Part shown: one piece after another, positions 40,058 to 41,875 of the stretch | Position numbering within the stretch: position 1 is the first letter of the stretch | Layout of the letters: the number at the start of each line of letters is the position of its first letter | From: Candidatus Omnitrophota bacterium | GTDB taxonomy: Bacteria; Omnitrophota; Gorgyraeia; Zapsychrales; Zapsychraceae | Assembly: GCA_029261055.1 (NCBI GenBank) | Contig: JAJDCA010000015.1 | Coordinates: forward strand, 19,998 to 83,997 | DNA: 64,000 nt | Direction of reading: 5' to 3' | Notes under the pieces: generated by a model | Database searches by the model: none | What the model was told of the DNA's origin: nothing | Seen by the model: the letters and a program-made list of their open reading frames with translations, nothing else | Translations under genes and position numbers: made by a program

Positions 40058-40336
40058 ACCCGGAGGAGGTGCTGAACCATAATTGCTACCGCCAAGATCA
40101 TATCCTCCTGCTGCAATACGATTCCATAAATTATCACCCGGAGGATAAATTCCATCGACTAGGATTGGAGGACTGTAGGATATCGCATCACTTTCTTGAT
40201 AGGTAAAACTTATGGGAGGGTTTGCACTTATATCATCAGCTCCAATTTCTATTATGTCGGATAATAGAGAACGTTTGGTTTTCGTACTTAAAGTGTAATC
40301 AAATTGATAACGCGGAGTTTTTCAGCGAGTTTGACC

Positions 40337-41400
40337 TCAAGCCGGTTGCATAGTTACTTCTGATGGCTCTCTGTGAGAACCATGCTGACTTGTCTGCCAT
40401 GCAGTATAACGCAGCAGACGAGCCATTTCAAGATTGCGTTTTCTCTGATTAAGAATCACCTCCTTTTGGCCCGACAACGCCTGAAGCGGGGTAACATAAT
40501 TTAAGGAACTGTGCGGATCATTGTTGTAAATATCCGGGAAGCGGTTAAGCCAACGGATAATATCGTCGACTAGTGAGAATGCTTGCGGAGCAGCCCTGTG
40601 ATATTTTAGAGTTTTGATAAACGATTCTATCCACGCCTGATCGTCGGGCGTGTGTGGTCGGCCAAAATGTACGGGCGCACCCAAGAGTTCTTTGAGAGTT
40701 TTTTTGGTATAGCGGGATTTCATGGCTGAACCTCTGTCGGAATGCGCCAGCAGTTTAGCTGTAAGATGCTCCGGTATTAATGCGTGAGCTTCCTGTACCG
40801 TCCGTGTGAGGTCTTCTGATGATATTGAGTTGACCGCGTGTCCAATATGCAAAAGATACCTTTGGGGCAGGATCATAACCGGAATCGCCCATATGTTTAC
40901 GCCGGAATCAGTTCTAAACTGCGTACCGTCGTAACACAGAAGCGAAAATCCTTCGTCCAGGAGCGCGTGAGCGCTGATATAGGCGGTTGTTTTTCGACGA
41001 TACTCTAGTGGTTTAACCATATCCTTGGCTTTAAGAATCCGATAAACCGAGGATAAAGAGGCATGAAACATTCCTGATTCATGGCCATGCACATAAATGT
41101 GGCTCAAGGGTTTACCGATAAGTTCCGACGACCATGCAGCGTCTTCAATAGCCTGACGTTCGTGTTCAAGCAGCTTGTTCCAGGCAACACGTTGCTTTGC
41201 AGGCTTAGGATTAACCCAGCGGCGGAATTTTCTGGGATTGATCCCGAATATTTCGCAGGCTGTTTTTTGGCTGACGCCTTCGGTTATAGATTCTTTAATA
41301 ATATTGACCATGGCTTTTCTGATTTCCGGTTTAAAATGACCATTGATTGGCCCCTTTAGGCCTATCGCATCTTTTTTTTTAATAAGGCTAGCTCGTGACC
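40337..41400 (-). CDS. IS3-family transposase OrfB (rve/DDE integrase core), expressed by programmed -1 frameshift from OrfA.
   Basis: Integrase-core region ...LLCYDGTQFRTDSGVNIW...HSDRGSAMKS...WIESFIKTLKYH.... The first ~85 codons of the track ORF (40337..41617) are an alternate-frame overlap artefact. Confidence 0.7.
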
Positions 41401-41745
41401 GACGGCTGACAGTGCATCTTTGGTTTCGGTCAGTTCTTTGGATATTTTTTGATGCTGTTCTACGGCTACGGTTTGTTGCCGACGACCTGGTTTTCCCGGA
41501 TTGGCCAGAGCTTCCATGGCTGCCATTTTCACCTTTTTTCGTATGGCAACCAGATCCCACGGCTTTAAACCGTGGCGTGCCAGTATGGTTTTGACCGGCG
41601 CGCTGGGTGCGTTGCATTCCAGATATATCTCGTAGAGTTGTTCTGGATTGAGTTTTAATCGTTCTTTTTTTCGGTTTGTGTTTGTCATGATGTCCAATAG
41701 GTTCCTCCTTAAGGCTATTATAGCCTTCTTAGAACGTATAGGCAA
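41362..41745 (-). CDS. IS3-family transposase OrfA (helix-turn-helix plus leucine zipper).
   Basis: 127 aa, basic and coiled-coil-like. It overlaps orfB in the -1 frame. The A9G slippery run lies at about 41381..41392. Confidence 0.7.
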   Translation of the reverse strand: MPIRSKKAIIALRRNLLDIMTNTNRKKERLKLNPEQLYEIYLECNAPSAPVKTILARHGLKPWDLVAIRKKVKMAAMEALANPGKPGRRQQTVAVEQHQKISKELTETKDALSAVGHELALLKKKMR

Positions 41746-41875
41746 TTTCGCCTTACGCTGATAGTTAATTAACCTTTGGACTTGAGGACACTATCGCTGA
41801 AAAAACGGGCGTGATAAAGGTAAGCAAGTTGTAGTTAGTGAGATTAATAAAAACCAACTGAAGAATTTAAAATAT

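Follow-up and report, generated by a model that had tools for sequence, protein, structure and literature searches.

Why does a very large Rhs reading frame begin directly beside a mobile element, and has it kept its natural start? The question is raised by the 64-kb stretch of Omnitrophota DNA analysed here (the window), in which the called Rhs open reading frame comprises 2903 codons on the minus strand, from an ATG at 40057 (31346–40057). Read directly, the region between 39.7 and 42.8 kb contains a block that is GC-richer than its surroundings and holds two overlapping minus-strand frames, and a first-pass annotation made from the letters alone had interpreted this block as an intact IS3-family element at the 5' end of the Rhs gene. 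The features on which our account rests are collected in Table 1.

Table 1. Features of the locus, with positions counted from the first letter of the window
Feature	Position	Strand	Remarks
5'-truncated Rhs / Tc-toxin B-C-like gene	31346..40312	-	2988 open codons
Rhs coding sequence upstream of the called ATG	40058..40312	-	85 codons (RYQFDYTLSTKTKRSLLSDIIEIGADDISANPPISFTYQE...); homologous to the stretch just past the SpvB match in relatives
Complete IS3-like insertion sequence	40313..41809	- (transposase strand)	1497 bp; homology limits in 20 or more related copies
IRR, OrfB side	40313..40341	-	...CTTGAGGTCAAACTCGCTGAAAAACTCCG; holds the stop of the Rhs frame (TGA 40324..40322, minus strand)
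OrfB part of the OrfAB fusion	40337..41371	-	344 aa + stop (40339..40337); -1 frame relative to OrfA
OrfA	41362..41688	-	108 aa; ATG preceded by AAGGAGG; C-terminal end ...HELALLKKKMR (stop)
Slippery run A9G (A AAA AAA / A AAA AAG), putative -1 frameshift site	41371..41380	-	near the end of OrfA, TTA TTA AAA AAA AAG
Candidate transposase promoter, TTGCCT-17-TATAAT	41717..41745	-	consensus match only; shuffled sequence gives as many such sites
IRL, OrfA side	41781..41809	-	minus-strand reading CCCGTTTTTTCAGCGATAGTGTCCTCAAG; holds the stop of the right-hand frame (TGA 41798..41800, plus strand)
Right-flank open frame	41810..42682	+	first possible start GTG 41876, no Shine-Dalgarno; first ATG 41 codons later

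Extent and coding capacity of the element

The limits of the element were set by comparison with related copies. Scanning species-representative genomes with the OrfB part yielded 26 related loci, and in 20 or more independent copies the DNA is homologous to the window exactly from 41809 to 40312/40313, regardless of the flanking sequence. The 4–5 bp target duplications of the relatives fix these ends to the base as CCC(G/T)... and ...(T/G)CCG: perfect direct repeats of this length accompany such ends in seven of 12 complete relatives, and one Endomicrobiales MAG carries three identical copies of the element with three different 4-bp direct repeats. The window element itself ends in CCCGTTTTTTCAGCGATAGTGTCCTCAAG and CGGAGTTTTTCAGCGAGTTTGACCTCAAG, imperfect inverted repeats of 29 bp that match at 21 of the 29 positions, with IRL beginning CCCGTTTTTT... 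and IRR finishing ...AAAAACTCCG. Terminal inverted repeats had been recognized in the first-pass annotation and are confirmed here; the ends that it implied (~40319..41803) had to be revised, each lying 6 bp farther out. No other copy of the element occurs within the 64-kb window, and we found no DNA similarity to plasmids.

Just outside the element, the flanks at 40304–40312 and 41810–41818 form an imperfect inverted match (TTGATAACG and, as reverse complement, TTTATCACG; 7/9 positions). This likeness is absent in the relatives and is unexplained; it may be chance. Longer inverted repeats that would take it in were considered and rejected, because the homology of all relatives stops at 40313 and 41809.

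Both frames inside the element have counterparts in the related copies. The C-terminal motif HEL(A/S)LLKK of OrfA is kept in all relatives, and 10 of 10 relatives have an A8G run at the place equivalent to the A9G run of the window, followed by OrfB in the -1 frame, such that alignment to relatives supports the slippery site as well as the inverted repeats. The A9G run had been spotted beforehand, though at ~41381..41392, about 10 nt away from its position in Table 1. By analogy with other IS3 elements, we infer that the element would make OrfA and that a -1 ribosomal slip at A9G would yield, in addition, a 450-aa OrfAB DDE transposase. Its candidate catalytic residues D254, D318 and E355, together with K362, are invariant in 11 copies, and the OrfA and the OrfB DDE core proposed earlier are confirmed; the second D, the E and the K align with those of ISSpu6, while the first D is assigned by invariance only. 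A frameshift-stimulating hairpin 3' of the slippery site was also considered and rejected, as its 5-bp stem is roughly conserved but overlaps the conserved codons KGP(L/I)NGH.

The closest copy, on a contig of a Desulfobacteraceae MAG (JAAEKY010000982), is 94.5% identical to the window element without indels. The two differ by 52 synonymous and 29 non-synonymous changes in the coding sequence, by a single change in the 121-nt left end and by none in the last 27 nt, and both this synonymous excess and the near-unchanged ends argue for purifying selection on the protein and on the element ends. Given the boundaries shared with relatives, the inverted repeats, OrfA, the A9G run and OrfB, the element is structurally intact, as the first reading of the sequence had claimed, and it is probably transposition-competent.

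The related copies (L003–L028; 66–77% DNA identity) lie on contigs binned mostly as Omnitrophota, and also as WWE3, Ratteibacteria, Goldbacteria, Endomicrobiales, Dehalococcoidia and Bathyarchaeia; since many of them measure no more than 1.5–4 kb, their binning is doubtful. The distribution suggests that relatives are widespread in anoxic sediment and groundwater communities. One of the contigs (L027, MNVP01000006.1, 3434 bp) begins with the 3' end of the element, ends with its 5' end and has CTCA on both inner sides, which suggests either a small circular molecule of ~4.4 kb with one copy or an assembly wrap-around.

The missing 5' part of the Rhs gene

Upstream of ATG 40057 the Rhs frame remains open for 87 codons, of which 85 lie in the flank (40312..40058) and two within the element, and it closes at the TGA inside the inverted repeat, in agreement with the ~87 codons counted originally. 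Two protein searches show what this extension is. An exhaustive HMMER search of 1.8 billion representatives recovered ~40 long homologues (33–46% identity, up to 3292 aa), and the first flank residue of the window aligns to their residues 259–370. A word-based search recovered partial homologues, in which the first flank residue corresponds to residues 247–301, past the signal peptide and the SpvB domain; proteins above ~1100 aa, the 2903-aa product of the window included, did not appear in this word-indexed search, and full-length homologues were found only in the exhaustive search. The homologue alignments cross the called Met without a break, at a site inside a conserved domain where the homologues themselves have no Met. 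Since the 85-codon extension is homologous to the matching part of full-length relatives, it is real coding sequence, and since the alignments run unbroken across ATG 40057, the gene is 5'-truncated at the element end and this ATG is internal to it.

The comparison with full-length homologues, which had been proposed as a check, also disposes of the view that the gene starts naturally at 40057, with the element merely upstream in intergenic DNA and the upstream frame open by chance. While ATG 40057 is indeed the first ATG, GTG or TTG in the Rhs frame, the 85 codons upstream of it are homologous in dozens of relatives up to the very first flank codon, and we regard a natural start at this position as refuted, with practically no probability left to it. 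The ATG is preceded by CACCTCCTCCGGGT and has no Shine-Dalgarno sequence; among the ORF starts that were listed mechanically for the window, ~60% have one.

The relatives also indicate what lay upstream of the break. Pfam places SpvB upstream of the break point in four of four full-length homologues scanned, and all 14 full-length homologues whose starts we inspected have hydrophobic, signal-peptide-like N-termini. Judged by homology, the window gene has lost ~260–370 codons encoding the export signal and the SpvB domain. SpvB-like sequence was sought in the 64 kb by tblastn with six homologue N-termini, with only noise as a result. The first-pass annotation had held that the real N-terminus is missing, that the called ATG is not the natural start and that neither the called N-terminus nor its extension has a signal peptide; the first two points are supported by the ~40 full-length homologues and the third agrees with the absence of both the signal peptide and SpvB from the window. 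Its further suggestion, that the missing part might be a PAAR/T6SS adaptor, did not survive the comparison: the homologues carry a Sec-type signal peptide and SpvB, which is the Tc-toxin B/C architecture, and there is no PAAR match in the remnant or in the four full-length homologues scanned with Pfam.

The part of the gene that is left encodes FG-GAP repeats, TcdB_toxin_midN, RHS repeats (PF05593, E = 1.3e-38), Laminin_G_3, fn3, Big_9, PT-HINT and a C-terminal tip, and the core-end motif ...RYYDPSIGRF...NNPINLVDPSGN can be read in its translation. The PT-HINT or intein-like Hint domain occupies residues ~2317–2450 of the Rhs protein, shortly before the core end ...DPSGN. There is no Pfam match for the C-terminal tip (the last ~330 aa) or for the 166-aa ORF just downstream (30836..31336), which is a possible immunity gene.

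Origin of the junctions and fate of the remnant

How, then, was the 5' part lost? Mapping of the exact ends and of the target duplication, as had been suggested with the first reading, showed that no duplication flanks the window copy: read in the direction of the transposase, the sequence runs ...CACG, element, CGTT.... Nor is there any minus-strand continuation of the Rhs frame beyond 41810. A simple insertion with a 2-bp CG duplication was considered and rejected; the continuing minus-strand frame has no SpvB similarity and soon hits stops. Because there is no duplication and the other flank is unrelated to the 5' part of the Rhs gene, the locus as assembled is not a simple insertion.

As had been reported, the frame of the plus-strand ORF at 41876..42682 in the right flank is likewise open back to the inverted repeat, where it meets the TGA listed in Table 1. 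Ahead of the GTG this adds only 22 flank codons, which may have stayed open by chance in this sequence. In the 268-aa product, only the C-terminal ~70 aa have relatives and the N-terminal three quarters have none. The C-terminal module, GGIxLxxxxLxLxIKRDGNGVPLP...IxGFxPxIxxIxPV..LLGL, is common to proteins with mutually unrelated N-terminal parts; one of these proteins has an ATPase domain of the histidine-kinase type. The module is not covered by any Pfam family and may represent a C-terminal domain, so far undescribed, for targeting or anchoring. Directly to the right of this ORF lies a ParE toxin / ParD antitoxin pair (42711–43276, minus strand). Elsewhere in the window, a full-length c-di-GMP-I riboswitch (RF01051, 66.5 bits) is found at 21038–21121 on the plus strand, ~170 nt upstream of the ORF at 21294..22859.

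The locus is either a product of recombination between two insertion sequences or an artefact of metagenome assembly, in which sequences were wrongly joined across an element present in several copies, and under both readings the left junction and the disruption of the Rhs gene are real. A mis-join would mean that a single, simple insertion was followed by an assembly chimera: the 5' half of the gene, with its CGTT(A) duplication beside IRL, would lie on another contig, and the present contig would have been joined through the repeat to the flank of a different copy. Such a join would explain, as an in silico effect, why there is no duplication and why two unrelated frames diverge from the element, and the source is a metagenome assembly of uncultured Omnitrophota. 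The host's RarA points to this group as well, its best named relatives (68–78% identity) all being Omnitrophota. When run SRR15505515 was assembled independently (k=31), the locus broke up at the element, whose interior forms a separate contig identical to 40324..41710, while the right-flank contig starts at 41780 and so includes 30 bases of shared element end up to 41809. This pattern of contigs implies at least two near-identical copies in the sample, across whose ~1.4 kb short reads cannot phase the flanks. Duplications are likewise missing from five of 12 related copies on MAG contigs, a share that is unusually high. Against a chimera, the NCBI contig (150,464 bp) is continuous through the element, the exact 426-aa product of the OrfB frame occurs on only one NCBI contig, and no second junction was recovered. 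We hold a chimeric contig to be a serious possibility, if one on which we would not wager.

Searches for an intact or second version of the locus were empty. Two metagenome scans for an uninterrupted target, one with a degenerate pattern for YQFDYTLSTKTKR and one with an exact right-flank 24-mer, found nothing, and neither did exact-protein look-ups with the Rhs product, the 426-aa frame, OrfA and the downstream 166-aa ORF.

We rate recombination slightly above a chimeric contig. Our best explanation of the whole, which we would give about an even chance of being right, is an IS3-like insertion in the Rhs gene followed by recombination between two insertion sequences, which left a 5'-truncated gene. 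In an Omnitrophota genome, the element would have inserted into a very large gene for a secreted protein of the Rhs / Tc-toxin B-C type, within the stretch that encodes the SpvB domain. The missing duplication and the unrelated other flank then call for a second event, most economically homologous recombination between two copies of the element, which would have taken the 5' part from the locus, by deletion if the copies were direct or by inversion if they were inverted. The remaining 3' 2988 codons would have been left with no promoter, start codon, signal peptide or SpvB domain of their own, and ATG 40057 would simply be the first in-frame Met. The 8.9-kb remaining frame is perfectly open, and either the event is recent or the remnant is still under selection; we read the open frame best as the sign of a recent event.

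On this explanation by insertion and recombination, the 5'-truncated Rhs gene is most likely dead. The contrary case is that the truncated gene is still expressed, by read-through from the transposase or from an outward promoter (TTGAAA-17-TATACT, 40431..40403), and that translation from ATG 40057 gives a signal-less protein with a retained role. Transposase gene and remnant point the same way and no terminator is predicted from one to the other; all 2988 codons of the frame are intact, and the outward promoter-like sequence matches at 10 of 12 positions. However, promoter-like matches in the element are no commoner than in shuffled sequence, two in-frame stops separate OrfB from the Rhs frame, and the start would have to be made at an ATG that lacks a Shine-Dalgarno sequence and falls inside a conserved domain, for a protein that has lost the signal peptide and SpvB domain of all full-length homologues. 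Expression of this kind thus seems unlikely to us, and the outward promoter that the first-pass annotation had offered as one way of driving the Rhs gene has no evidence in its favour. A junction promoter formed from two ends, or a hybrid outward promoter, was considered too and set aside, as no convincing hexamers were seen by eye and the scan reported none. The N-terminal region is part of the shell in TcB–TcC structures, and with both the signal peptide and SpvB lost, a product of the remnant would be neither exported nor a complete shell.

A different emphasis would make the element the main subject, as a distinct unnamed IS3-related branch with C-rich CCC.../...CCG termini in Omnitrophota and other candidate phyla, whose transposase read-through might keep a signal-less Rhs shell and its toxin expressed intracellularly. 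To this combination we attach very little probability.

Consequences and comparison with known systems

What the locus presents is an ordinary and common situation, a Tc B/C-like Rhs gene broken by a mobile element, and the general picture of IS or Rhs biology is unchanged by it. For annotation it has three consequences. First, what is called at 40057 as a 2903-aa 'Rhs protein' comes from a gene that has lost its 5' end, and its annotation should say that it is a pseudogene or fragment. Second, the contig may be chimeric at the element repeat. Third, a lineage that falls below the threshold of curated models now has defined element ends, a duplication length and a frameshift site, which should aid its annotation in Omnitrophota and other uncultured groups. 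A literature search on SRR15505515 and on Omnitrophota insertion sequences returned nothing relevant.

The element shares much with the IS3 family (IS911, IS150, IS3; ISSpu6). Its length of 1.5 kb (1497 bp) falls inside the family range of about 1.2–1.55 kb, OrfA ends in an A-rich slippery heptamer, comparable to the A6G/A7-type motif of the family, and is followed by OrfB in the -1 frame, the DDE transposase has a K seven residues past the E, and the inverted repeats are imperfect and ~29 bp long. Target duplications, 3–5 bp in the family, measure 4–5 bp in seven of 12 relatives and are absent from the window copy. The fused protein matches the IS3 model NF033516 of NCBIfam over its full length (positions 9–367 of 369, E = 4.4e-34), with 118.3 bits against a curated cut-off of 160 bits; the score with the IS481 model is far lower (57.6 bits). 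It differs from the family in several respects. Amino acid identity to the nearest annotated transposase, the IS3-like transposase of ISSpu6 found among plasmids, is only 30% (E = 1e-27). Pfam matches the transposase with rve_3 (E = 3e-11) and otherwise only with weak HTH hits, without rve or HTH_21, and finds no HTH_Tnp_1 in OrfA. The spacing from the second D to the E is 36 residues versus 35, and the termini of the window element and 12 relatives are 5'-CCC(G/T).../...(T/G)CCG-3' rather than the 5'-TG...CA-3' usual in the family. As these termini are not TG...CA and the model score lies below the NCBI cut-off, we place the element as a distant relative only; on sequence grounds, it is best filed as an apparently unnamed IS3-like element.

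The Rhs protein resembles secreted Rhs/YD-repeat proteins of the Tc B/C type, such as a homologue of 3090 aa (P0266) that has the whole downstream architecture of the window protein. Shared with these proteins are FG-GAP, TcdB_toxin_midN, DUF6443 and RHS repeats, the Laminin_G_3 and fn3 inserts, the core end ...RYYDPSIGRF...DPSGN and a variable C-terminal tip. Unlike all full-length homologues examined, the window copy is devoid of the signal peptide and SpvB domain; a further difference is the PT-HINT domain that precedes its core end.

Rearranged or orphan rhs fragments associated with insertion sequences occur in enterobacterial Rhs loci. Like these orphans, the rhs frame of the window has no natural 5' end and adjoins a mobile element. 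Whereas the enterobacterial cases involve a short C-terminal orphan with an immunity gene, the present remnant keeps 2988 codons, lies beside a different kind of element and belongs to an Omnitrophota host.
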